From an uncultured bacterium (lineage in GTDB: Bacteria; Cyanobacteriota; Vampirovibrionia; Gastranaerophilales; Gastranaerophilaceae), in the NCBI GenBank assembly GCA_900320675.1, contig ONTD01000028.1, forward strand, positions 1 through 37,556: a stretch of 37,556 nt of DNA, written 5' to 3'. Shown here piece after piece: positions 7,869 to 34,495 of the stretch. The translations under genes and the position numbers were made by a program. Position 1 is the stretch's first letter. Every line of letters begins with the position of its first letter. Under the pieces are notes generated by a model. That model had not been told where the DNA came from. It did no database searches and saw only the letters and a program-made list of their open reading frames with translations.

Positions 7869-8387
7869 TTACCCGTTACCGCCAAAGAGTCTTTGTTGAC
7901 CTTCTTTTGCACGTTGTTCGTAGTTTTGAATTTGTGTCTTACAAATATCAAGATCACCTGCAATCTGAGTTTTCTTTCTTTCTAATACTTTTTCTTTTTC
8001 GTGAATAAGTTTTGCTTCATACTTAGCAAACTGCTGCATAGATTGGTCGTAAAAACTCTTATACATAGCTTGCTGATAATACTGTTGGACTTGAGCGTCC
8101 TGTTTTGCCATCATCTGTTGATAATACGGAGTCTGCATTAATTGTTGCATTTGATTCATTGCGCTAATCTGACTGTACTGGGAAGATGCATTCATATATC
8201 CCATTTGTCTTCCGTACATTGAACCTGGTGTGCTGAGCATTTCGCCTATTGAAACTCCCGAATCTGCGATGTTCTCCGCATACGATTTTAAATCTTCTAT
8301 TTCTTGTGTAATTTGCGTCAATTGATACTCATAATCAGCCTTTTTGCTGATGAGATCATTGATTTTCCAATGAGCTACTAAAAACAT
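7869..8387 (-). CDS. Hypothetical Q/M/Y-rich coiled-coil protein, 172 aa
   Basis: Long ORF with a purine-rich RBS (AAGGTAGGGG) 5 nt upstream of the ATG, its own promoter-like box (S1) and its own terminator. I recognise no family. Confidence 0.6.
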   Translation of the reverse strand: MFLVAHWKINDLISKKADYEYQLTQITQEIEDLKSYAENIADSGVSIGEMLSTPGSMYGRQMGYMNASSQYSQISAMNQMQQLMQTPYYQQMMAKQDAQVQQYYQQAMYKSFYDQSMQQFAKYEAKLIHEKEKVLERKKTQIAGDLDICKTQIQNYEQRAKEGQQRLFGGNG

Positions 8388-8463
8388 AATCTTACCCCTA
8401 CCTTATCTTTTTTATAACCTTTTAACTAACCTTACATTTATATAAAAACTTTTGGGTTTTTAA

Positions 8464-8502
8464 AATTGCCATAAATATGAGCTTTGTTAACATTTCTTAA
8501 CA
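8464..8502 (-). promoter_or_regulatory. TGTTAA-box promoter-like element S1
   Basis: The minus strand reads TGTTAA-GAAA-TGTTAA-caaagctcatattta-TGGCAATT. It lies about 75 nt upstream of the 172-aa gene ATG. Confidence 0.6.
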
Positions 8503-12106: not shown

Positions 12107-13304
12107 GTATGTTTTTTGCTATTGTATATTTATCGGCTCTTTCAAGATGTTTAACAGTGCCGTCATTTTTTAGGATTGATACTTCGTTAAAATCGCTTGA
12201 AAATCCGATATCTTTTCTTGAGATGTCATTTGCTACCAAATAATCACAACCTTTATTTTTAATTTTATTTTTAGCGTTCTCAATTAAGTTTTCACTCTCT
12301 GCACAAAAACCTATAATAAGCGGTGCTTTTTGGGAAGCACAAGAATTTGAGGGTACTAAAACTTTTGCTCTTTTTTCGCATAGGCATTTTAATATATCCG
12401 GATTTTTGATTAACGTAATTGAGATTTCGTCTTCGGAAGTTTTTTTCATTTTATGATTAAGTTGATCTTTTGCCTTGTAATCCGCAACTGCGGCTGCCAT
12501 GATTATACAATCTGTGTTATCAAATTCTTTTTCTATTGCGATTTTCATATCTTCAGCCGATTTAACGTTGATGACTCCGTACGGTTTTGAAGTGTTGACA
12601 GTTGTAATTAATAAAACATCAGCGCCCATTTCGTATGCACAATCTGCCAAGGCTATTCCCATTTTGCCGGATGAATAATTAGAAATATATCTGACAGTAT
12701 CAATAGCTTCTATTGTACCGCCTGCTGTTATTACAATTTTTTTACCGGCTAAATTTTTATTTTTTAATGTGAGCAAATTTTCTGTTTTCTGGTAGATTTT
12801 TTCTAATTCGCATAATCTGCCTTTCCCGTTGTACCCGCACGCTAAAAAGCCTTCTTCCGGCTCAATTATATTATATCCGGCATGTTTAAGTTTATTTATA
12901 TTTTCCTGAACAAAAACGTTATTCCACATTCCGCAATTCATGGCCGGACAAATAATAACAGGTTTTGTAAATGCACAGGTTATAGAGGTAAGTAAATTAT
13001 CGCAAATCCCATTTGCAATTTTACCTATTGTGTTTGCAGTTGCCGGAGCGATTACCATGATATCCGCTTCGTCTGCGTATGAAATGTGTTCAGGTTTGTA
13101 ATTTTCTGTAGTAAATTCCTCTATACCGACTTCATTTTGGCTGAGATTTTGTAAAGTTAGCTTAGTTACAAAATTCAAGGCATTAGGGGTGCATACGACG
13201 CGTACATTTGCACCGGAACGCTTATACATTCTTATTAATTCACAAATCTTGTATGCGGCAATTCCGCCTGTTATGCCTATTAAAATATTTTTCCCGTTTA
13301 ACAT
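12087..13304 (-). CDS. coaBC: Bifunctional phosphopantothenoylcysteine decarboxylase / phosphopantothenate-cysteine ligase
   Basis: 405 aa. The N-terminal flavoprotein domain has GITGGIAAYK and the C-terminal CoaB domain has NYSSGKMG. Confidence 0.95.
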   Translation of the reverse strand: MLNGKNILIGITGGIAAYKICELIRMYKRSGANVRVVCTPNALNFVTKLTLQNLSQNEVGIEEFTTENYKPEHISYADEADIMVIAPATANTIGKIANGICDNLLTSITCAFTKPVIICPAMNCGMWNNVFVQENINKLKHAGYNIIEPEEGFLACGYNGKGRLCELEKIYQKTENLLTLKNKNLAGKKIVITAGGTIEAIDTVRYISNYSSGKMGIALADCAYEMGADVLLITTVNTSKPYGVINVKSAEDMKIAIEKEFDNTDCIIMAAAVADYKAKDQLNHKMKKTSEDEISITLIKNPDILKCLCEKRAKVLVPSNSCASQKAPLIIGFCAESENLIENAKNKIKNKGCDYLVANDISRKDIGFSSDFNEVSILKNDGTVKHLERADKYTIAKNILEEIYG

Positions 13305-18264: not shown

Positions 18265-18385
18265 TTTACTTATCCCTTAATTAAAAATATCTGTCTAAAG
18301 CTTACTCGCTCCTAATACTATGATACTTTACAAAAATATTTTTGCAAGTCGTTAAATTTGTTTAACATTTATATTCATCTAATAA

Positions 18386-18424
18386 TGTTAAGTTATGTAA
18401 CAAGTTATGTAAATTGTGAAATTA
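18386..18424 (+). promoter_or_regulatory. TGTTAA-box promoter-like element S2
   Basis: TGTTAA-GTTA-TGTAAC-aagttatgtaaattg-TGAAATTA. It ends 57 nt upstream of the 645-aa gene ATG. Confidence 0.6.
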
Positions 18425-18481
18425 GGCTTTCTCAAATGTTTTTATTTAAGTAAGAGAGTATAAAAAGAAAGAGAGCATATT

Positions 18482-20419
18482 ATGGTTGACGGTGTTTCCT
18501 CAGGTATCAAATCCCTAAATCTACAGCAATTGCAGGCACTACAAAAAGCTAAAAGTGTTTCTAAAGGTGCTGAAAAAACCGGCTTTGATAAAGACGGTTC
18601 TATAATGCAGAAAAAAGAGGGTTTGTCTGCAAGTGAACTTTGGAGTGCACAATCAAATAAAAATGCAGGTAAAGCCGAAAATGCTTCCAATGCAGCTAAT
18701 GATGGGGCTAAACTTTACAGTGATCCAAGTAAATTGGAAACTCTTGCTGATATAGAAAAAGCAAGAGCCGAATTGAAGAAAGATTCAAAAGGTTTTGCTA
18801 TTGGCGATAAAAATTCCTTGAATGATGCCAAGACACGATTAAGTTTAATGCAACGCGAAAGTGAACTTAAGGGAATGTACAGGAGCAGTGATCCTAGCAA
18901 TTTATCCCAAGCTCAATTGCAAGAAGCTAAAGATTACAGATCTACAAAAGTCGGTTCGTTTGGTATATCTACATCAAATCAAAAATCATTTGATGCTATA
19001 TCAAACCTAATGGAAAAGAATTGGGCACTTGAAGCTCAACAAAATGGTACTTCCGCTAAAGCTGAAACAAAGCCGACAACAAATAATAATAAGGTAGAAA
19101 CAAATAATAACGCAACAAATGCGGAGAAATCCAATAGTGCAACATCAGCAGATAAAGCTAATAATGCCGAACAAACTGATAATAATGAAAATAACAACAA
19201 CGGTATAGACAGCAGTAAAAACCATGAGGCTGCATCAAAGTCAAATTCGGTTAATACCGGTGCTTGGTCAATAAGTATGTTCAAATCAAGCTATATGGAT
19301 GCGCATACAAAGGCAGCCGAATCCGGCGATCAAATGGATCTAGCGGATAATACTAATGCAAATTCCGCTGAACTTCAACAGGATATTCAAGCGACTAACA
19401 ATGAAATGAAAGCCGAAAATGCAAAGACAACGCAAGATGTAAAGAAAAATCAGCAGGCTATAAAGAAAGAGCAGAAAAATGTTGCCAAGAACGAAAAAGA
19501 AGTTCAAAAAGCGATGAAAGAAATGGAAGCTGCAACTTCCGGAATGGATAGAACCGGAAGTGGTGTAAACAGTGCTAATTCGCTAAAACTTGCTTCTGAC
19601 TTGCAGCCGCAGCCGGCACAACCGGCAGATAGAGCTGACGGGGCAAAAGGTGCTGATCCTGCCGCAGGCGGTGCCGCTCAACCGGCAGCAGCTGCTAATC
19701 AAACGGCTGAAACCGATGCGGCTCAACAAGCTGAACAAGGTCAAGCCCAAGATCAACAAATTAATCAGGCTCAGGCAAAGATGGACAAAGCTTCAAAAGC
19801 AGCTAAAAAATCTACAAAACAAATGACCAAATTGAATACCAAAAGCGGTAAACAAGTTACAAGAATGACGCAGCACGCAAAAGTCAAGACGGCTGAACTT
19901 AATCAGCAAAAGGCTCAGTTAAATACAAATGCTACAACTGCGCAACAAGTAAATACAGTAGGTCAAAGAACCGAAAGCTCAGGTAACTCCGCAGTTAAAA
20001 AAGGTGTAACTGAAGGCGTAATGGGCGGTGTTGAAATTGTTACAGGAAAAGCTATGCAGAACAATCCATATACATCTGCAATTGGTGTAGCATTGGAACA
20101 AAAAGGTAACATGGATGTTGTATCCGGTGCTACAGGTGCATTACAAGGTGCAATAACAGGTGATGCCGGTGCTACTACCCAAGCAAAAGCTACTGATGCA
20201 AATAAACAGACGGTTGTTTCTCTGTCCGATGCCGGAGTTGCAATTTCTACCGGCGGAAGCGTTATTAAAAACGGTGCGTCATTGCAAAAAACTGTAAAAA
20301 CTACCGGTACAACAATTAAAAAGACTCAAAAACAAGAAAAGACTATTGTAAAACAACAAACTCAAGCTAAACAAATGGCACAAGAAGCTGCCGCTAAAAA
20401 AGCTCAAAAATTAAAATAA
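18482..20419 (+). CDS. Hypothetical low-complexity N/Q/A/K/T-rich protein, 645 aa, no signal peptide
   Basis: It is the only long ORF in this interval and all overlapping ORFs look like shadows. It has its own TGTTAA-box promoter (S2) and its own terminator (20449-20481). Confidence 0.7.
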   Translation: MVDGVSSGIKSLNLQQLQALQKAKSVSKGAEKTGFDKDGSIMQKKEGLSASELWSAQSNKNAGKAENASNAANDGAKLYSDPSKLETLADIEKARAELKKDSKGFAIGDKNSLNDAKTRLSLMQRESELKGMYRSSDPSNLSQAQLQEAKDYRSTKVGSFGISTSNQKSFDAISNLMEKNWALEAQQNGTSAKAETKPTTNNNKVETNNNATNAEKSNSATSADKANNAEQTDNNENNNNGIDSSKNHEAASKSNSVNTGAWSISMFKSSYMDAHTKAAESGDQMDLADNTNANSAELQQDIQATNNEMKAENAKTTQDVKKNQQAIKKEQKNVAKNEKEVQKAMKEMEAATSGMDRTGSGVNSANSLKLASDLQPQPAQPADRADGAKGADPAAGGAAQPAAAANQTAETDAAQQAEQGQAQDQQINQAQAKMDKASKAAKKSTKQMTKLNTKSGKQVTRMTQHAKVKTAELNQQKAQLNTNATTAQQVNTVGQRTESSGNSAVKKGVTEGVMGGVEIVTGKAMQNNPYTSAIGVALEQKGNMDVVSGATGALQGAITGDAGATTQAKATDANKQTVVSLSDAGVAISTGGSVIKNGASLQKTVKTTGTTIKKTQKQEKTIVKQQTQAKQMAQEAAAKKAQKLK

Positions 20420-20597: not shown

Positions 20598-21137
20598 ATG
20601 TCACGTATAGGAAAGAAACCTATTGACATTCCGCAAGGAGTCGAAGTAAAAATAGACGGACAATTGGTTACCGCTAAGGGACCTATGGGCGAAGAATCTG
20701 TTAACGTTCGTCCTGAAATTTCCGTAAAAGTAGAAAACAATCAAGTAATTCTTACAAAAGAAGCAACTTCAAGAGAAGCTGATGCTTTGTACGGATTATC
20801 AAGAACTCTTGTAGCAAACGCAGTACACGGCGTAAAAGACGGCTTTGAGAAAAAACTTGAAATCCAAGGCGTAGGTTACCGTGCTAATATGGAAGGTAAA
20901 AACCTTAACCTTGCATTAGGATACTCTCATCCGGTTATTGTTGAACCGCCTGCAGGTATTACAATTACAGTAGAAGCAAATACTAAAATAACTGTAAAAG
21001 GTTCTAATAAACAAACCGTTGGTGATGTTGCAGCGTACATCAGAGCAAAACGTCCGCCTGAAGTATATAAAGGAAAAGGTATTAGATACGAAGGCGAATA
21101 CATTAGACGTAAAGCAGGAAAAGCCGGTAAGAAATAA
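20598..21137 (+). CDS. rplF: 50S ribosomal protein L6
   Basis: Canonical L6 sequence (MSRIGKKPI...GVGYRA...YKGKGIRY). An AAGGAG RBS sits at 20584-20589. Confidence 0.97.
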   Translation: MSRIGKKPIDIPQGVEVKIDGQLVTAKGPMGEESVNVRPEISVKVENNQVILTKEATSREADALYGLSRTLVANAVHGVKDGFEKKLEIQGVGYRANMEGKNLNLALGYSHPVIVEPPAGITITVEANTKITVKGSNKQTVGDVAAYIRAKRPPEVYKGKGIRYEGEYIRRKAGKAGKK

Positions 21138-21439
21138 TGCTTGACAGAGTTCAAAATATTGCATTTAAAGGTGTTTACGATTTGATTGTTCCGAGAGGAA
21201 CATCAAAAGATCGAATAAATTGCAAGGCTGCTGAAATAGAAAAGGTAGTAACAGAAAATGTTGGTGATGAATTGCAACTTATTAGAGTACATCCTTTTGA
21301 TGACAGAATAAGAATAATAAGTAAAATAGATAATCCGTATCTTATTTCAAACTTATTTAATGCTATTGGTGGTGAAGCTTTAGCATTGCAATATTTTAAA
21401 CGGAATGTGCAAGAATATAATTTAAATATACAAGCGTAA
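21137..21439 (+). CDS. Hypothetical 100-aa protein translationally coupled to rplF
   Basis: TAATG stop/start overlap with rplF. The amino-acid composition is balanced and globular-looking. The competing minus-strand ORF 21175-21546 is F/L-rich and looks spurious. I recognise no family. Confidence 0.55.
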   Translation: MLDRVQNIAFKGVYDLIVPRGTSKDRINCKAAEIEKVVTENVGDELQLIRVHPFDDRIRIISKIDNPYLISNLFNAIGGEALALQYFKRNVQEYNLNIQA

Positions 21440-25165: not shown

Positions 25166-25204
25166 TGTTAAATTTTGTAACAAAATCAATTATACATGAA
25201 ATTA
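25166..25204 (+). promoter_or_regulatory. TGTTAA-box promoter-like element S4 (no downstream ORF)
   Basis: TGTTAA-ATTT-TGTAAC-aaaatcaattataca-TGAAATTA. The second hexamer and the 8-mer are identical to S2, at identical spacing. Confidence 0.6.
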
Positions 25205-25252
25205 TACAAAAAATATATACTTATTATATATAAGAGAACATTAAATAAACAC

Positions 25253-25265
25253 GAGAGAGAGAGAG
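25253..25265. repeat. (GA)6 dinucleotide repeat, with a second (GA)4 at 25291-25298
   Basis: Read directly: GAGAGAGAGAGAG and GAGAGAGA. Confidence 0.85.
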
Positions 25266-25331
25266 TATTATTTAAATCCGTTTTAATTAAGAGAGAGAAA
25301 AATTCCTATTCCTACCTTCCTAAAAAAGATT

Positions 25332-25354
25332 AGCCCCAAAAGCGGGGCTTTTTT
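25332..25354 (+). terminator. Orphan intrinsic terminator upstream of ribF
   Basis: AGCCCC-aaaagc-GGGGCT followed by TTTTT. No plus-strand CDS precedes it. Confidence 0.7.
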
Positions 25355-25389
25355 CTTGTCTTTGTTGATAATATTCTTTCTTTGTTTAC

Positions 25390-26858: not shown

Positions 26859-28097
26859 CTAGTGGATATGTCTGTATATTCCGATAAATTCATTAACAAA
26901 GCCTTCTAATAGGTCGTTAATTCTATCTTGAGTTATGTCGGAAAGCGGAAGATTAAATTCACGATTTTCAGGTGAATCAAACCCTGAATGGGTGATATAT
27001 ACAATGACTTTAGAGTAAGCCGGATATATCATTGTAAAGCGGCTCTCATTTTTCCCGCATATTATTCTAAAGACACTCTGGCTTTCATCGGTAAATTGTG
27101 CTATTTTTGCTTCCCCTATTTTTTCTTCATAAGCTTTTTGTACTCTGTAGAATACCGGAGCAATAGTATTTTCTATTTTTTTAGTAAACGCTTTTTTCAA
27201 AAACTTAAAAGTTTTTTCTTCTTTTTCCGGAATTTCAAGCCAATCCTCAGAGTTCGTTTCTTCTGTTGAAAATACTATATAATCAGAATTGTTAAGCATT
27301 GCACTATTTAATGCACATATAGCTTTCTTCTTTATTTCTTTAAAATCTTTCCCGTCTATCATTGATATGCCGCATTTTATGGTGCATTTTTCCGGTAGTT
27401 CGGATTTGATTTTTTCTAATACCTTAATCGCTCCGTCTACACCTGTGTGTAGTAATAATGAATATTTTGAACCGGTTGAATTTGATACAATATCTCCGGT
27501 TCGAACTGATTTTTGAAGAGCGTATTCAAATTTTTCGCACGAGAATTCTTTTTTACCGTTTTCATCAGGAGATATCAGCATATATGTCCCGCCGATATAA
27601 TCCTCTCTGTGTATTTCCTTTTCAAGAACTTCATCTTCAAATTTAGGATTATAAAAACCGCTATCTTTATCCAATATCCCGTAATAAGACAAAGATGATG
27701 CATATCTTCTGATTTTTGAGTTAAGTTCGGATTTCCTAATACTGTTGATTACCCTGATTAAGATTTCAGAGGGTTCGGAATTGACTGTAATATAATCATC
27801 TATTCCTTGGTCATATGCATACAAGATAAATGCTCTGTCGTAGTTGTTCACAAGTAATATAATATTTGAATTTGAAAAAATTCTGCGTTCTTTTAGGTAT
27901 TTTATTAGCCCTGTTGTCTTTTCTCTGTTTTCATGTTCATGAAGAATAATGATATCAGGTCTTAAATCGTACAATACGTCAGGTGCGTTATCGTAATTTG
28001 CGGCAAGCAGCTTATCAGAGCTCCTTAATAAAACCAAATTTTCCTGAAGCTTTGTTTTTATTTCATCTTGATTTGTAATTAATATGATAGTATTCAT
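26859..28097 (-). CDS. Pseudo-receiver / degenerate GGDEF domain protein with unknown C-terminal domain
   Basis: The REC-like N-terminus lacks the phospho-Asp (PDIIILHEHE) and the conserved Lys (DDYITVNSEP). The GGDEF-like core has DKDSGFYNPKFEDEV and RTGDIVSNSTGSKYSLLL. The start is set at ATG 28097, 4 nt after the ftsX stop. Confidence 0.65.
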   Translation of the reverse strand: MNTIILITNQDEIKTKLQENLVLLRSSDKLLAANYDNAPDVLYDLRPDIIILHEHENREKTTGLIKYLKERRIFSNSNIILLVNNYDRAFILYAYDQGIDDYITVNSEPSEILIRVINSIRKSELNSKIRRYASSLSYYGILDKDSGFYNPKFEDEVLEKEIHREDYIGGTYMLISPDENGKKEFSCEKFEYALQKSVRTGDIVSNSTGSKYSLLLHTGVDGAIKVLEKIKSELPEKCTIKCGISMIDGKDFKEIKKKAICALNSAMLNNSDYIVFSTEETNSEDWLEIPEKEEKTFKFLKKAFTKKIENTIAPVFYRVQKAYEEKIGEAKIAQFTDESQSVFRIICGKNESRFTMIYPAYSKVIVYITHSGFDSPENREFNLPLSDITQDRINDLLEGFVNEFIGIYRHIH

Positions 28098-28101
28098 ATC
28101 C

Positions 28102-29004
28102 CTACACTTGCAAATGTTTCTTGATACACAGTAAACTTCCGCCGGCACCGAACAGTATTCCCATTGCAAACATTGTTAATGCAACGGTTGTTTGTGCAAA
28201 TTGAGGCGTCGGAACCATGAAGAACTGATGAGCATGCAGCAGCCAGTTTTCTACAAAATGTAACGGTATGAACGCTACTATGGAACCGACAAATCCGTAA
28301 AATGCCCCTTGCATAAGCAGCGGAAATCTTATATACCAGTTACTTACGCCCATTAATCTCATGATTTCTATCTCATCTTTTCTGGATTGTATAACCAATT
28401 GTATTGTATTGTTAATAATCGTAATGGTCAGTATCCCAAGAATTATTACAACAAGTATTGTTATGGTATTTACGACGTGATTAAGCATTTGTATTTTTTT
28501 TGCTAAAGCCTGAGCGTAACTCATGTCTTCAACAGACGAAAGTGTTTTAATTTTTGAAAATACTGTGTCAATGTTTTCAGGTTTGTCTACTTTTACGTGA
28601 AGCGTATCAGGAAGCGGGTTTTCAACATCAGGCAGTTTCATCTCTCTTTTTAAATCAGCCCATGATTGAGCTTTTGAGACAATCTTAACACTTTCGACAT
28701 GTTCAAATTCGCCTACTCTGTTTTTTGCAATGTTAGCATCAGCATCTGACTTTAAGTAAACAGATATTTCCAGCACGTTGCCGAGTTCGTGTGCAAATGA
28801 AGATATTGTCATTGCCGAACGGAAAAACGCTCCAAATATTGTAAGAATGGCTGCCATGGTTGTAATTATTACCAAATTTACGACACCTGTTCTTTTAATA
28901 TCGTTAAAGGTCTCCATTGTCAGTCTGTATAATATTCTCAACTCGCAGAGCCAGTCTTTCGGAATATGTTTTTTTACTTCTTTTTTTATAGTCTGTTTAC
29001 TCAT
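28102..29004 (-). CDS. ftsX: Cell division ABC transporter permease FtsX
   Basis: 300 aa with an N-terminal TM helix, a ~110-aa extracytoplasmic domain and a C-terminal 3-TM FtsX bundle. It overlaps ftsE by 8 nt. Confidence 0.9.
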   Translation of the reverse strand: MSKQTIKKEVKKHIPKDWLCELRILYRLTMETFNDIKRTGVVNLVIITTMAAILTIFGAFFRSAMTISSFAHELGNVLEISVYLKSDADANIAKNRVGEFEHVESVKIVSKAQSWADLKREMKLPDVENPLPDTLHVKVDKPENIDTVFSKIKTLSSVEDMSYAQALAKKIQMLNHVVNTITILVVIILGILTITIINNTIQLVIQSRKDEIEIMRLMGVSNWYIRFPLLMQGAFYGFVGSIVAFIPLHFVENWLLHAHQFFMVPTPQFAQTTVALTMFAMGILFGAGGSLLCIKKHLQV

Positions 29005-30783: not shown

Positions 30784-30822
30784 TGTTAAGAATTGTTAAA
30801 ACATGTGCAAATTCTAGCAATA
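30784..30822 (+). promoter_or_regulatory. TGTTAA-box promoter-like element S3
   Basis: TGTTAA-GAAT-TGTTAA-aacatgtgcaaattc-TAGCAATA. It ends 71 nt upstream of ATG 30894. Confidence 0.6.
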
Positions 30823-30893
30823 AATTTTCTTGAGAGGTATTTAACAGGTAGAATAGGAATAGACAATATTATTTATTGAAAGGAAAAGATAAA

Positions 30894-32021
30894 ATGATGC
30901 AAATTCCAAATTTACCCAATTGCAAACCGGTAGCACAACAACAGCCGAGCTACAATGCAGTTAAAATTGACATCCACAATCCGATGGTGAATGTTCCGAC
31001 AGGTCAGATTCCTGCAGTTGAACCTCAGTATGAAAAAACAACGGCACCTATTTATGAGTATCCGAAAGCTGAAACTCAACCATATTACATGCCGCCGCAA
31101 ATTACAGCTCCGGAAGTATCTGCTCAATCGCAAACTCCCGTAGTCGTTCCTCCGGCAGTAAACCCTCAACCTGAACAAACTGTTGCCAGAGAAATCCCTC
31201 TTAATCCGGAAAAAATTCCGCCGGCACCGGTTGTAACAGAAGCTCCAAAGTCTGAAGAAAAGAAAAACGAACAGGTAAAAGATGAGGTCAGAGAAGAAGC
31301 TCCGGCTGCCGCAGAAAAACCTGTAGAAGTTGTAGAACCTGAAGAAATTAAACCTCAAGTTGATATAAATGAATTTATCGCAAAATTAACAAATCCTGAT
31401 TATGACGTTCAAGCTGCTGCTATGGAACAAATAGCGGATATGGTTGATAACGATAAAGAAAAAGCCTCAGATTTGTTAGATACAAAAGTAGTTGATGCTT
31501 TAAACGATATAATCAAAGCTGATACAACAGCTTTAGAAGGCCCTAGTGCTGAAGTTCAAGCTCAGAGAAAATCTATAAACGAATCTCAAATGGCAAAAGA
31601 AGAAAAAGCCGCTGCTCTTGAAGCAACCATAACTCCTAAAGAAAAAGCGGAAAGAAATAAAAGTTACGCAATCTTTACAGCAGCAATCTTACAAAAATTG
31701 TACGGTGATGAAGTAAAAAGATTGAAAAATATGACAGTTCCTCTAACTGAACTCCCTGGTGCAATTACTATGGTTGAACAGTTAAAAGGAAATCCGAACC
31801 CGACAGTCAGAGCGTCTGCTATCGAAGCTTTAAGCTACATCCAAGACCCAAGCTACAAAAAAGACTTGAAGACTGTGTTCGAAATAGCTCAAAATGATCA
31901 GGATGAAAATGTAAGAGCTGCAGCTACAGAAGCTTTAGATAAATTAAACAAAATAGCTGATGAAGTTGCCCTAAACCCTGAAAATAAAGAGCAAATTGAA
32001 AAAACAAAACAAGCTGCATAA
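30894..32021 (+). CDS. Pro/Glu/Val-rich N-terminal region plus C-terminal HEAT (PBS-lyase-like) repeats
   Basis: HEAT-like repeats are present (NPNPTVRASAIEALSYIQDP and DQDENVRAAATEALDKL). The start is set at ATG 30894, after the AAAGGAAAAG RBS. TGTTAA-box promoter S3 lies upstream and a terminator lies downstream. Confidence 0.7.
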   Translation: MMQIPNLPNCKPVAQQQPSYNAVKIDIHNPMVNVPTGQIPAVEPQYEKTTAPIYEYPKAETQPYYMPPQITAPEVSAQSQTPVVVPPAVNPQPEQTVAREIPLNPEKIPPAPVVTEAPKSEEKKNEQVKDEVREEAPAAAEKPVEVVEPEEIKPQVDINEFIAKLTNPDYDVQAAAMEQIADMVDNDKEKASDLLDTKVVDALNDIIKADTTALEGPSAEVQAQRKSINESQMAKEEKAAALEATITPKEKAERNKSYAIFTAAILQKLYGDEVKRLKNMTVPLTELPGAITMVEQLKGNPNPTVRASAIEALSYIQDPSYKKDLKTVFEIAQNDQDENVRAAATEALDKLNKIADEVALNPENKEQIEKTKQAA

Positions 32022-32087: not shown

Positions 32088-32189
32088 TTATTAAGTTTTT
32101 TTAACATAATCCGTTTAAAGTTAAAGTTTTTTTTATTTATGCCGTCTTACATAATAATGAAACCACAAAATTCTAAGGAGTATATATTT

Positions 32190-33423: not shown

Positions 33424-33888
33424 TTGGGGAAGTTAAAATTGAATAGTACTGCAAGAGTAAGAGAGTATCAATATGAGACACAGGGTTATGCGCAGAACCC
33501 TATAACAAAATCGCAAATTATAGAAGGCTATTTTTATAAAGAAAACTTGTTAAAAGAAATGGCCATCAGAAAGGTGAACATGACATTGTGTTCAATCTTG
33601 GGAGTTTGTGTCATTAGTGCTTTTATAAGTTACTATTTTTCAATGTCTAATGAGATAACTTTAAACACAATTTCAAGACAGGTTACTACCCTAAATGATG
33701 AAAATTCTGAATTGCAAAATCAATTAGACAGGCTAAAATCTTTTAACAATGTTGATTCAATGATGGCTCAACAAAATATTTTGCAAAAAGCTGCTAAAGT
33801 GATAGAGGTCCCTCAAATTGCAGCCGGTGTTGCGGCAAAAGAGAAGAAGGATTTAAAGTTAGCTATTGATTGGTCTGTCGGATATTAA
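33424..33888 (+). CDS. FtsL/DivIC-like bitopic coiled-coil protein
   Basis: It has a single TM helix (LCSILGVCVISAFISYYF) followed by a leucine-zipper-like coiled coil (NDENSELQNQLDRLKS). It sits directly after rsmH, as ftsL does in dcw clusters. The TTG start is uncertain. Confidence 0.55.
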   Translation: MGKLKLNSTARVREYQYETQGYAQNPITKSQIIEGYFYKENLLKEMAIRKVNMTLCSILGVCVISAFISYYFSMSNEITLNTISRQVTTLNDENSELQNQLDRLKSFNNVDSMMAQQNILQKAAKVIEVPQIAAGVAAKEKKDLKLAIDWSVGY

Positions 33889-33922
33889 TATTTGTTAATA
33901 TTTAAGTTGCAATGTAGCAAAA
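33883..33922 (+). promoter_or_regulatory. Degenerate TGTTAA-box variant S5
   Basis: TATTAA-TATT-TGTTAA-N16-TAGCAAAA. The first hexamer is degenerate and the spacer is 16 nt rather than 15. It overlaps the FtsL-like stop codon and lies upstream of the matrixin-like gene. Confidence 0.3.
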
Positions 33923-33949
33923 ATTTGTGTGTGGAGCTTTAAAATATAT

Positions 33950-34495
33950 ATGATAAAGAAAATTTTATTAACATTATTTTTATTGTTTTTTAGTGTTACA
34001 TCTGCGATGGCGTATAGTAATCCGAGATGGTTTAGCATGCCTGTTAGTGTGTATATCCCTAATGCTCCTCAGACGGCAACGGTTATGAAAGCTTTTCGTG
34101 AATGGCAAAAAGATTCAGGCGGTACTGTCAGATTTTTGTTCAGGAGGTCGCATAATACAGAGCGTTTGTCAAAAATTTCAGTGGTGTATGTAGATACACT
34201 CTCAAACGGTGAACCTTATGTTGTTGAACAAAAGTATACCAGTATCGGGAAAAGGCATATGGATACAAGCCGCGGATATTTTTATAAGCTGAGAATAATA
34301 ATTGCCAGACGTTCAGCTAAGGGTAAGTATTTTACTACTGCCCAGACTGAAGCTATTGCTCTGAGAGCAGTCGGTGAGGCTTTGGGAGTCCCTGCTGACG
34401 GTAGTAAAGGAGTTATGGCGGAAACATTCGATTTTTCTAACAGACATTTGCTTAAACAGGATATTGATGCTTTAAACAAAGTCTACAAGAAGTAG
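33950..34495 (+). CDS. Secreted matrixin (M10)-like protein lacking the zinc-binding HExxHxxGxxH motif
   Basis: Signal peptide MIKKILLTLFLLFFSVTSAMA. Matrixin-like blocks are present (RWFSMPVSVYI, AFREWQKDSGGTVRFLF, ISVVYVD, LLKQDIDALNKVY), but the active-site position reads LRAVGEALGVPAD. Confidence 0.55.
   Translation: MIKKILLTLFLLFFSVTSAMAYSNPRWFSMPVSVYIPNAPQTATVMKAFREWQKDSGGTVRFLFRRSHNTERLSKISVVYVDTLSNGEPYVVEQKYTSIGKRHMDTSRGYFYKLRIIIARRSAKGKYFTTAQTEAIALRAVGEALGVPADGSKGVMAETFDFSNRHLLKQDIDALNKVYKK

Follow-up and report, generated by a model that had tools for sequence, protein, structure and literature searches.

A tandem-box transcription-control signal shared by unrelated genes in uncultured Gastranaerophilaceae

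The stretch of DNA analyzed here, called the window throughout, consists of positions 1 to 37,556 of contig ONTD01000028.1 (assembly GCA_900320675.1), which comes from an uncultured bacterium of the Gastranaerophilaceae. The window has a G+C content of 36% and encodes a TolC-type channel, an SLH-domain protein, FtsEX, MutS2 and ribosomal proteins, and contigs with proteins identical to those of the window come from gut and rumen metagenomes. The element under study is a direct repeat of two TGTWAM-type boxes (W, A or T; M, A or C), followed by a conserved hexamer and a third conserved block; it precedes five units in the window, here numbered S1 to S5 and listed in Table 1. Its occurrence is non-random and its position constrained, and it is both conserved across species and common to unrelated genes; the sites are very probably a genuine transcription-control signal. 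The outer membrane, the SLH anchor, the HEAT-repeat proteins, a small genome and the gut habitat would be compatible with a member of the Vampirovibrionia/Melainabacteria.

Sites and architecture of the signal

The sequences and coordinates that the initial annotation had given for S1 to S4, and for S5 (33883-33922) as a weaker variant, proved exact on re-reading. S1 to S4 are all intergenic, and each is oriented toward a downstream unit, as had also been stated. The repeat TGTWAM-N4-TGTWAM has four matches on both strands of the 37.5-kb window, and these four are S1 to S4. In dinucleotide-preserving shuffles the mean was 0.22, and none of 100 shuffles reached four matches, which supports the earlier view that such a repeated layout is unlikely to arise by chance. 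With spacers of 0-3 or 5-11 nt between the two hexamers, 0-2 matches were obtained for each spacer, none of them at S1 to S4 in that register. A weight matrix derived from the sites gave scores of 27.6 to 38.4 for S1 to S5, and the runner-up in the window scored 16.5; this gap indicates that the class is sharply bounded. No further site was found in the 10 kb to the left of the window.

The runner-up position (18342-18377, minus strand) is located in the intergenic region of S2, where TGTTAA-N16-GCAAAA points in the opposite direction without a proper box 1. Its GCAA is part of a canonical TTGCAA-16-TATCAT promoter of the oxidoreductase gene, so that it probably falls outside the class. At S2 itself, a third hexamer of the box type, TGTAAA, occurs 12 nt past box 2 (TGTTAA-GTTA-TGTAAC-AAGTTA-TGTAAA, 18386-18415); it is probably not functional because it is missing in the equivalent of S2 at the related locus L012.

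The full layout is box 1-N4-box 2-N16-18-G(C/A)AAT(T/A)-N16-yTTTAT(TA)nGTAAG. The boxes follow the consensus T(G/A)T(T/A)A(A/C), the repeat starts are exactly 10 bp apart at every site in the window, and an A/T pair stands ahead of each hexamer box at most sites. In some orthologues, the G of either box is replaced by A (TATTAA). The initial annotation had described the boxes together with a downstream element; this two-part description holds as far as it goes, but the third block, which starts 16 bp past the hexamer at S1 to S4, had been overlooked. The downstream element had been read as an 8-mer at exactly +15, and this reading has to be replaced, since the element is in fact the hexamer G[CA]AAT[TA], located 16-18 nt past box 2 across sites and species.

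Table 1. Coordinates of the sites, their blocks and their downstream units in the window, with the counterparts of one neighboring protein at related loci.
Feature	Position	Strand	Details
S1 module	8431-8502	-	box 1 8502-8497 TGTTAA; box 2 8492-8487 TGTTAA; hexamer 8469-8464 GCAATT
S1 third block	8447-8431	-	TTTTATATAAATGTAAG
S1 target	7869-8387 (unit with 5' leader, 7869-8430)	-	172-aa protein, helical, Q/M/Y-rich
S2 module	18386-18456	+	box 1 18386-18391 TGTTAA; box 2 18396-18401 TGTAAC; hexamer 18418-18423 GAAATT
S2 third block	18440-18456	+	TTTTATTTAAGTAAGAG; tabulated as TTTTATTTAAGTAAG
S2 target	18482-20419	+	645-aa low-complexity protein, A/Q/N/K-rich
S3 module	30784-30855	+	box 1 30784-30789 TGTTAA; box 2 30794-30799 TGTTAA; hexamer 30817-30822 GCAATA
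S3 third block	30839-30855	+	ATTTAACAGGTAGAATA; tabulated as ATTTAACAGGTAG
S3 target	30894-32021	+	375 aa; Pro-rich N-terminus, C-terminal HEAT repeats (HEAT_2, E=2.6e-11)
S4 module	from 25166	+	boxes 25166-25181; hexamer 25198-25203 GAAATT
S4 third block	25220-25236	+	CTTATTATATATAAGAG
S4 module with transcript unit	25166-25355	+	no open reading frame (ORF); small-RNA candidate
S4 unit, 3' parts	25298-25327; 25332-25349	+	CU-rich stretch; terminator hairpin, then T run
S5 module	33883-33955	+	box 1 33883-33888 TATTAA; box 2 33893-33898 TGTTAA; hexamer 33917-33922 GCAAAA
S5 third block	33939-33955	+	CTTTAAAATATAT; degenerate, 2 nt nearer the hexamer; overlaps downstream start codon
S5 target	33950-34495	+	181-aa secreted protein
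Weak sixth site	32089-32127	+	TATTAA-GTTT-TTTTAA-N17-TAAAGT; weight-matrix score 13.9; precedes 93-aa ORF at 32139
Receiver-domain protein	26859-28169		counterparts: L020 5961-7205; L021 5955-7178; L022 5957-7183

Conservation in relatives and in metagenomes

The module of S1 is kept in six species; in the five further ones, the orthologous proteins share 49-66% identity with the S1 protein. The species representatives with an S1 orthologue are three genome bins from the rumen, RUG12268, RUG10582 (approximately 1.96 Mb) and RGIG6833. Both boxes (T[GA]T[TA]AA), the intervening GAAA and the hexamer GCAATT are retained upstream of the orthologues; outside these blocks, 5' of box 1 and in the 17-18 nt that separate box 2 from GCAATT, the sequences are unrelated. 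The same block-only pattern is seen for the S3 module in L020, L021 and L022, where the target proteins are 68, 60 and 53% identical, respectively, and the alignment of S3 with its orthologues also shows a conserved stretch from the hexamer to the third block. The S5 equivalent in L020 reads TATTAA-TATT-TGTTAA-N18-GCAATA. The S2-like module in L012 reads TGTAAA-CTTT-TGTAAC-N16-GAAATA, followed by CTTTATATATAT, and the gene behind it is likely the orthologue of the S2 target, as judged by its low-complexity composition only. The orthologous loci had been proposed as a check on the signal, and boxes and hexamer were indeed found upstream of the orthologues of S1, S3 and S5, with the likely equivalent of S2 in L012.

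Relatives have extra sites before a 98-100-aa protein, with TAAACT as the hexamer, and the L020 equivalent of the weak sixth site reads TGTTAC-ATTT-TGATAC-N16-TAAAGT. Conserved sites with a TAAACT or TAAAGT hexamer are without a third block. The composite pattern has 16 matches in 181 kb of lineage DNA, where second-order Markov simulations gave 0.47. As the pattern had been defined from several of these sites, the count is circular in part, and the orthologue test is the independent one. All but one of the 16 matches (15 of 16) precede a unit and have its sense orientation. A loose search of lineage DNA for the third block alone returned AT-rich noise only and was uninformative.

A metagenome collection was scanned with TGTTAANNWWTGTWAMNAN{14,16}GMAATW, a pattern that does not include the third block. 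The scan gave at least 121 matches at no fewer than 120 loci, and all metagenome counts given here and below refer to the matches listed. As a block 13-19 nt past the hexamer, [CT]TT[TA]AT is present in 42 of 121 matches, where the background in the same loci is 3.2% (binomial, P~1e-31). Its offset is exactly 16 in 33 of these 42 sites, compared with a background of 0.45% (binomial, P~1e-48). The 42 matches with a third block are referred to as genuine sites and the other 79 were taken as chance matches; about two-thirds of the matches look like chance, as expected for a short pattern. Where third-block loci overlap known lineage DNA, their proteins are 64-81% identical to those of the lineage.

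A logo was built on 32 complete sites, with positions numbered from the G of the hexamer (=0). It starts as G0 M A A T T5, followed by approximately 10 free positions, and continues as (T)A17 T A19 T A21 C22 T T T A26 T27 A T A30 t A32 T G34 t A A G38. The first position of the hexamer is an invariant G, the second is C in 14 of the 32 sites (approximately 45%), and purines are kept at positions 32 and 34, approximately 7 nt past the TTTAT core, in 30 of the 32. In the weight matrix, the information content of box 1 equals that of box 2. The commonest box 2 is TGTAAC (21 of the 42 genuine sites). Box 2 ends in AAC in 28 of the 42 genuine sites versus 19 of the 79 chance matches, and the distance from the C of AAC to the hexamer is 16 in 17 sites, 17 in eight and 18 in three.

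The third block often ends in ATG followed by TAA or TAG (ATGTAAG, ATGTAGG), which forms a minimal start-stop 'ORF', as at 8437-8432 on the minus strand of the window; G34 and T35 each occur in 18 of the 32 logo sites. This feature may be incidental, TGTAAG also resembling the box hexamer.

Units downstream of the sites

The leader of the S1 unit is conserved and holds AGGTTAG repeats and the ribosome-binding site AAGGTAGGGG. The stretch at 8395-8440 (minus strand) is filled with two to three copies of AGGTTAGTTA at a period of 11-12 nt, and these copies are kept in six species. For the S1 protein, only five homologue clusters were found; its AlphaFold model is a long helical hairpin with a predicted local distance difference test (pLDDT) score of 70, for which Foldseek returned no match below E=0.1. 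The S3 protein has 1056 homologues. The proteins of S1, S2 and S5 matched no Pfam or NCBIfam family, sub-threshold matches aside. At S5, the degenerate third block contains the start codon of the target, 13 nt past the start of yTTTAA, and the same is observed in L020 (~13135-13150); the mRNA would be leaderless if the third block holds the -10.

The first ORFs behind the 42 genuine metagenome sites resemble the window targets in kind. They include S1-like coiled-coil proteins, families of 56-59, 65-74 and 89-91 residues, N/Q/Y-rich, C/M/G/P-rich and G-rich proteins, and long low-complexity proteins. When 10 of these ORFs were compared with Pfam, none exceeded the curated cut-off except one, which is located 200 nt away behind a small-RNA unit.

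The unit behind S4 is ORF-less and ends in a terminator, as the initial annotation had noted; it is not an oddity, and a homologue, L126, exists. In L126, the promoter blocks, GAGAACATTAAATAA and the CU-rich AAATTCCTATTCCT..TTCCTAAAAA are kept and the terminator stem differs. Judging by its sequence, S4 is a conserved small-RNA gene. No Rfam match at the gathering threshold was obtained anywhere in the window, S4 included, a tRNA scan of the window was also empty, and the predicted fold of S4 is no more stable than those of shuffles (z = -1.1). At least seven of the 42 genuine metagenome units also have no ORF and a terminator at the end. The L046 and L111 units carry other CU-rich runs, and L042, L073 and L116 form a CA-rich family containing CTAACCTT.

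For the CU-rich stretch of S4 (UUCCUAUUCCUACCUUCCU, 30 nt), pairing is predicted at -19.2 kcal/mol with AGGUAGAAUAGGAAUA, an invariant part of the S3 leader (30843-30859), and at -17.8 kcal/mol with the S1 ribosome-binding site AAGGUAGG (8392-8405). The best of 32 other translation starts in the window reached -15.4 kcal/mol against the same stretch, and approximately 1% of 90-nt windows reach -17. The pairing was computed with the CU-rich seed only; duplex predictions for the whole S4 RNA are not meaningful. Between S4 and S3, the proposed partners are UUCCUAUUCCUACCUU as the seed and AGGUAGAAUAGGAA in the leader. These predictions are no more than suggestive that the S4 RNA may pair with leaders of other members of the regulon, a lead that is not needed for the main conclusion. 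In the ORF-less, terminator-ended L042, L073 and L116 units, which have the same promoter type, the CTAACCTT and AACCTAC motifs are complementary to the AGGTTAG repeats of the S1 leader.

Some neighboring genes may be recorded here. The receiver-domain protein of Table 1 (approximately 410-436 aa) is located next to ftsEX in all four species; it consists of a receiver domain, a middle part that by eye is degenerate GGDEF-like, and an uncharacterized C-terminal part, and it has no Pfam match. A 100-aa ORF with no assigned function lies between rplF and rplR (21137-21439), overlapping the rplF stop codon by one base, and its N-terminus NIAFKGVY resembles NPAFKGVY of the L039 target, whose promoter is of the class described here. 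At L023 (14025-17099), approximately 3-6 kb left of the window start, two short ORFs of the tubulin/FtsZ family (229 and 211 aa) flank a 163-aa ORF and a WG-repeat beta-propeller protein, and they adjoin tRNA genes and a DUF1643 gene.

Interpretation of the signal

The sites can be explained as a lineage-specific class of regulated promoters that would define one regulon. The two repeats, one helical turn apart, would be bound head-to-tail by a dimeric OmpR/PhoB-family regulator with a winged helix, which would recruit RNA polymerase to a core promoter without a usable canonical -35/-10 pair. The expression of all units would then follow the phosphorylation state of one regulator, and the regulon would consist of small or low-complexity proteins and several terminator-ended small RNAs, among which S4 may pair with the leaders of other members. 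This response-regulator mechanism is the reading that we favor, with a confidence somewhat short of even. The kind of protein that reads the boxes, its role as an activator and not a repressor, and the place where transcription starts are all inferred.

Direct repeats of 6-8 bp phased at 10-11 bp are the general hallmark of OmpR/PhoB-family sites, and they are found at all sites in the window and at their orthologues. The initial annotation had already likened the layout to OmpR/PhoB boxes, and the 10-bp distance between repeat starts, which is constant in the window and kept in orthologues, bears this likeness out. A tandem winged-helix regulator fits better than a sigma factor because box 1 is as informative as box 2, and a sigma factor reads one upstream element. 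The claim that the class is distinct from sigma-70 promoters is likewise upheld: the neighboring promoters are canonical, such as TTGAGA-17-TATACT before the transketolase/ftsEX operon (TTGAGA-17-TATAAT in L020) and TTGCAA-16-TAATAT before a tRNA, and the blocks of the class fit no such pair. When a primary sigma-70 -35/-10 pair was placed on any two of the blocks, the spacers were 12-14 or 19-21 bp or A2/T6 was missing, and this placement was rejected. The lack of a canonical block pair is as expected for factor-dependent promoters.

Several observations weigh against a response regulator as the reader. The window holds no regulator gene, and none of the 42 genuine metagenome sites has one directly behind it, which leaves no hint of autoregulation; no winged-helix response regulator was found in the window or the fetched flanks, where the sole receiver-domain protein has no DNA-binding domain. 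A primary-sigma -10 would not tolerate the invariant G1 and frequent C2 of the hexamer, which points to a specialized sigma factor, either in place of an activator or besides it. Between box 2 and the hexamer the distance can shift by +/-1, that from the hexamer to the third block is rigid, and the last two blocks could therefore be a pair contacted by a sigma factor.

Two positions of the -10 were considered. It is slightly more probable than not that the hexamer is the -10, with box 2 acting as the -35, and the repeats would then be located at about -45 to -30, as in class II, PhoB-like promoters. Transcription would in that case be expected to begin near 8457 at S1 (minus strand), 18430 at S2, 30829 at S3, 25210 at S4 and 33929 at S5. 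The box 2-hexamer spacing of 16-18 bp is consistent with this assignment. The variant hexamers TAAACT and TAAAGT look like ordinary -10s and occur at conserved sites lacking the third block, a purine-rich element resembling a ribosome-binding site and a start codon closely follow the hexamer in both S5 orthologues, and the stretch between hexamer and third block is conserved at S3. The other assignment, to which we give nearly but not quite an even chance, is that both the -10 and the start lie in the third block; the repeats would then be located at about -70 to -50, and the hexamer would be a special -35. The expected starts would here be near 8439-8435 at S1 (minus strand), 18448-18452 at S2, 30847-30851 at S3, 25228-25232 at S4 and 33947-33951 at S5. 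The third block is the most AT-rich part and stands at a rigid distance from the hexamer. The A2/T6 rule peaks in it at two overlapping positions, at 71% and 66% of sites, compared with 53% for the hexamer; neither peak is at a canonical distance from a -35-like element. Purines are kept approximately 7 nt further on, and the C2 of the hexamer is hard to reconcile with a -10. The proposal of the initial annotation, in which its 8-mer was the -10 and transcription started approximately 7 nt downstream, survives as one of these two assignments, although it did not consider the third block, which could hold the -10 and the start.

A close comparison is with the high-light regulatory element HLR1 of cyanobacteria and plastids, (G/T)TTACA(T/A)(T/A)-N2-(G/T)TTACA(T/A)(T/A), which is bound by RpaB (Ycf27) and serves many unrelated promoters, including that of the small RNA PsrR1 (PMC6525291). 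RpaB activates from HLR1 centered near -51 and represses from HLR1 centered near -5, and it acts as a repressor at high-light-induced genes (PMC6525291). The center of the repeat here would be at about -38 if the hexamer is the -10 and at about -55 to -64 if the third block holds it. Both signals consist of two imperfect direct repeats phased at 10 bp and used at unrelated promoters. The reverse complement of HLR1, WW-TGTAA(A/C)-NN-WW-TGTAA(A/C), equals TGTAAM-N4-TGTAAM with A/T at the last two spacer positions, as is the case here. On the opposite strand, the TGTAAC and TGTAAA boxes are thus exact fits, whereas half of the boxes here are TGTTAA or TATTAA, with one or two mismatches. The sites here also differ from HLR1 in that they all have one orientation relative to the gene and are followed at fixed distances by two extra conserved blocks that HLR1 promoters lack; moreover, the host is a non-photosynthetic gut and rumen organism, and the targets are uncharacterized proteins instead of photosynthesis genes.

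The WalR (YycF/VicR) site of Firmicutes, TGTWAH-N5-TGTWAH, is likewise read by a regulator of the OmpR family (PMC9210968). TGTWAH covers TGTTAA, TGTAAC and TGTAAA, and both signals are direct repeats; however, the spacer here is always 4 nt (10-bp period) in place of the 5 nt (11 bp) of WalR, and the targets are not cell-wall hydrolases. As a candidate, the WalR box was rejected, its N5 form having no match in the window. The Pho box consists of 7-bp repeats with an 11-bp period and a near-consensus -10, and the CpxR site of Proteobacteria is GTAAA-N5-GTAAA. In both, tandem direct repeats replace or adjoin the -35, which is poor, and the activator makes contact with RNA polymerase; CpxR sites also share their 10-bp period and their core with the boxes described here. 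In contrast to the Pho box, the downstream elements here are non-canonical, and an extra, rigidly spaced block is present.

Instead of an activator, or together with one, a dedicated alternative sigma factor might read the signal; this is the main rival explanation, although we rate it below even. Box 2 (TGTAAC/TGTTAAC) could be a -35 of the 'AAC' type used by extracytoplasmic function (ECF) sigma factors, with G(C/A)AAT as its -10; alternatively, G(C/A)AATT could serve as the -35 and the yTTTAT/TATA block, a rigid 16 bp away, as the -10, with the repeats being auxiliary sites for the alpha subunit or an activator. The AAC bias of box 2 in the genuine sites and an ECF-like spacing of 16-17 bp at 25 of the 28 AAC sites are consistent with such a factor, and so are a hexamer unlike TATAAT (invariant G, then C/A), the purines past the TTTAT core and the rigid distance from hexamer to third block (16 at 33 of 42 sites), which is typical of these factors. 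However, the second, equally conserved box one helical turn upstream is left without account, one third of the sites and several orthologues lack the C of AAC, and conserved TAAACT/TAAAGT sites without a third block exist. There is no CGT-type -10, and neither of the two pairings matches a known sigma consensus. In Bacillus, sigma-X promoters read TGTAAC-N17-CGAC and sigma-W promoters TGAAAC-N16-CGTA. The upstream TGTAAC of sigma-X is identical to the commonest box 2, and the distance from AAC to the next element is 16-17 bp here; in contrast, the -10 here is not CGxC, AAC is not universal, and a second upstream copy lies 10 bp away. The sites do not conform to an ECF promoter proper, with AAC in only 67% of the sites and the CGT/GTC-type -10 absent, although the spacing fits. 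The sigma-28 (FliA) promoter, TAAA-N15-GCCGATAA, was rejected, as the hexamer has no CGA core at any site and the targets have no flagellar domain. The consensus sequences of sigma-54, sigma-28, SigB/SigH and the sporulation sigma factors were rejected on comparison by eye.

An operator function, in which a repressor on the tandem boxes would occlude the -35 region and the units would be silent until it leaves, is improbable. The boxes would cover -45 to -30 if the hexamer is the -10, and RpaB is known to repress or activate from one motif depending on its position (PMC6525291). Yet no independent -35 is present under or beside box 2 for the polymerase to use once the repressor has gone, and non-canonical core elements are the usual mark of activator-dependent promoters. 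That there is no regulatory signal at all, the sites being AT-rich chance similarities or copies of a short repeated or mobile cassette, is barely credible. The genome is 64% A+T, single TGTWAM hexamers are common (148 in the window), and most of the metagenome matches listed look random, as described above. However, the shuffles never reach the observed number of tandem matches, the orthologous sites keep their blocks despite a large divergence of the proteins, and the third block co-occurs far above background; copying of a cassette is at odds with the fact that the sites share the blocks only and not the spacers or flanks.

Under the favored response-regulator mechanism, the three-block promoters are a variant of the known tandem-repeat promoter signal of response-regulator type. 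With this motif, gene regulation can be approached from sequence in an uncultured lineage represented by contigs from human-gut and rumen metagenomes, and the 20-bp repeat of the motif offers a direct route to the regulator. The motif groups dozens of domainless proteins and several small RNAs as one co-regulated set, which is the first functional statement on them. If an RpaB-like protein were the reader of the boxes, it would show the targets of an ancient regulator outside photosynthetic organisms. A larger cell-state switch, developmental or stress-related, is a speculative and rather unlikely extension. It would amount to 100-200 units per 2-Mb genome if the density holds, with a dedicated regulator or regulator-sigma pair, dozens of disordered or tiny proteins and families of base-pairing small RNAs. 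In such a programme, the CU-rich and CA-rich seeds of the small RNAs would target conserved leaders of the same regulon, and the third block would represent a novel type of core-promoter or leader element.

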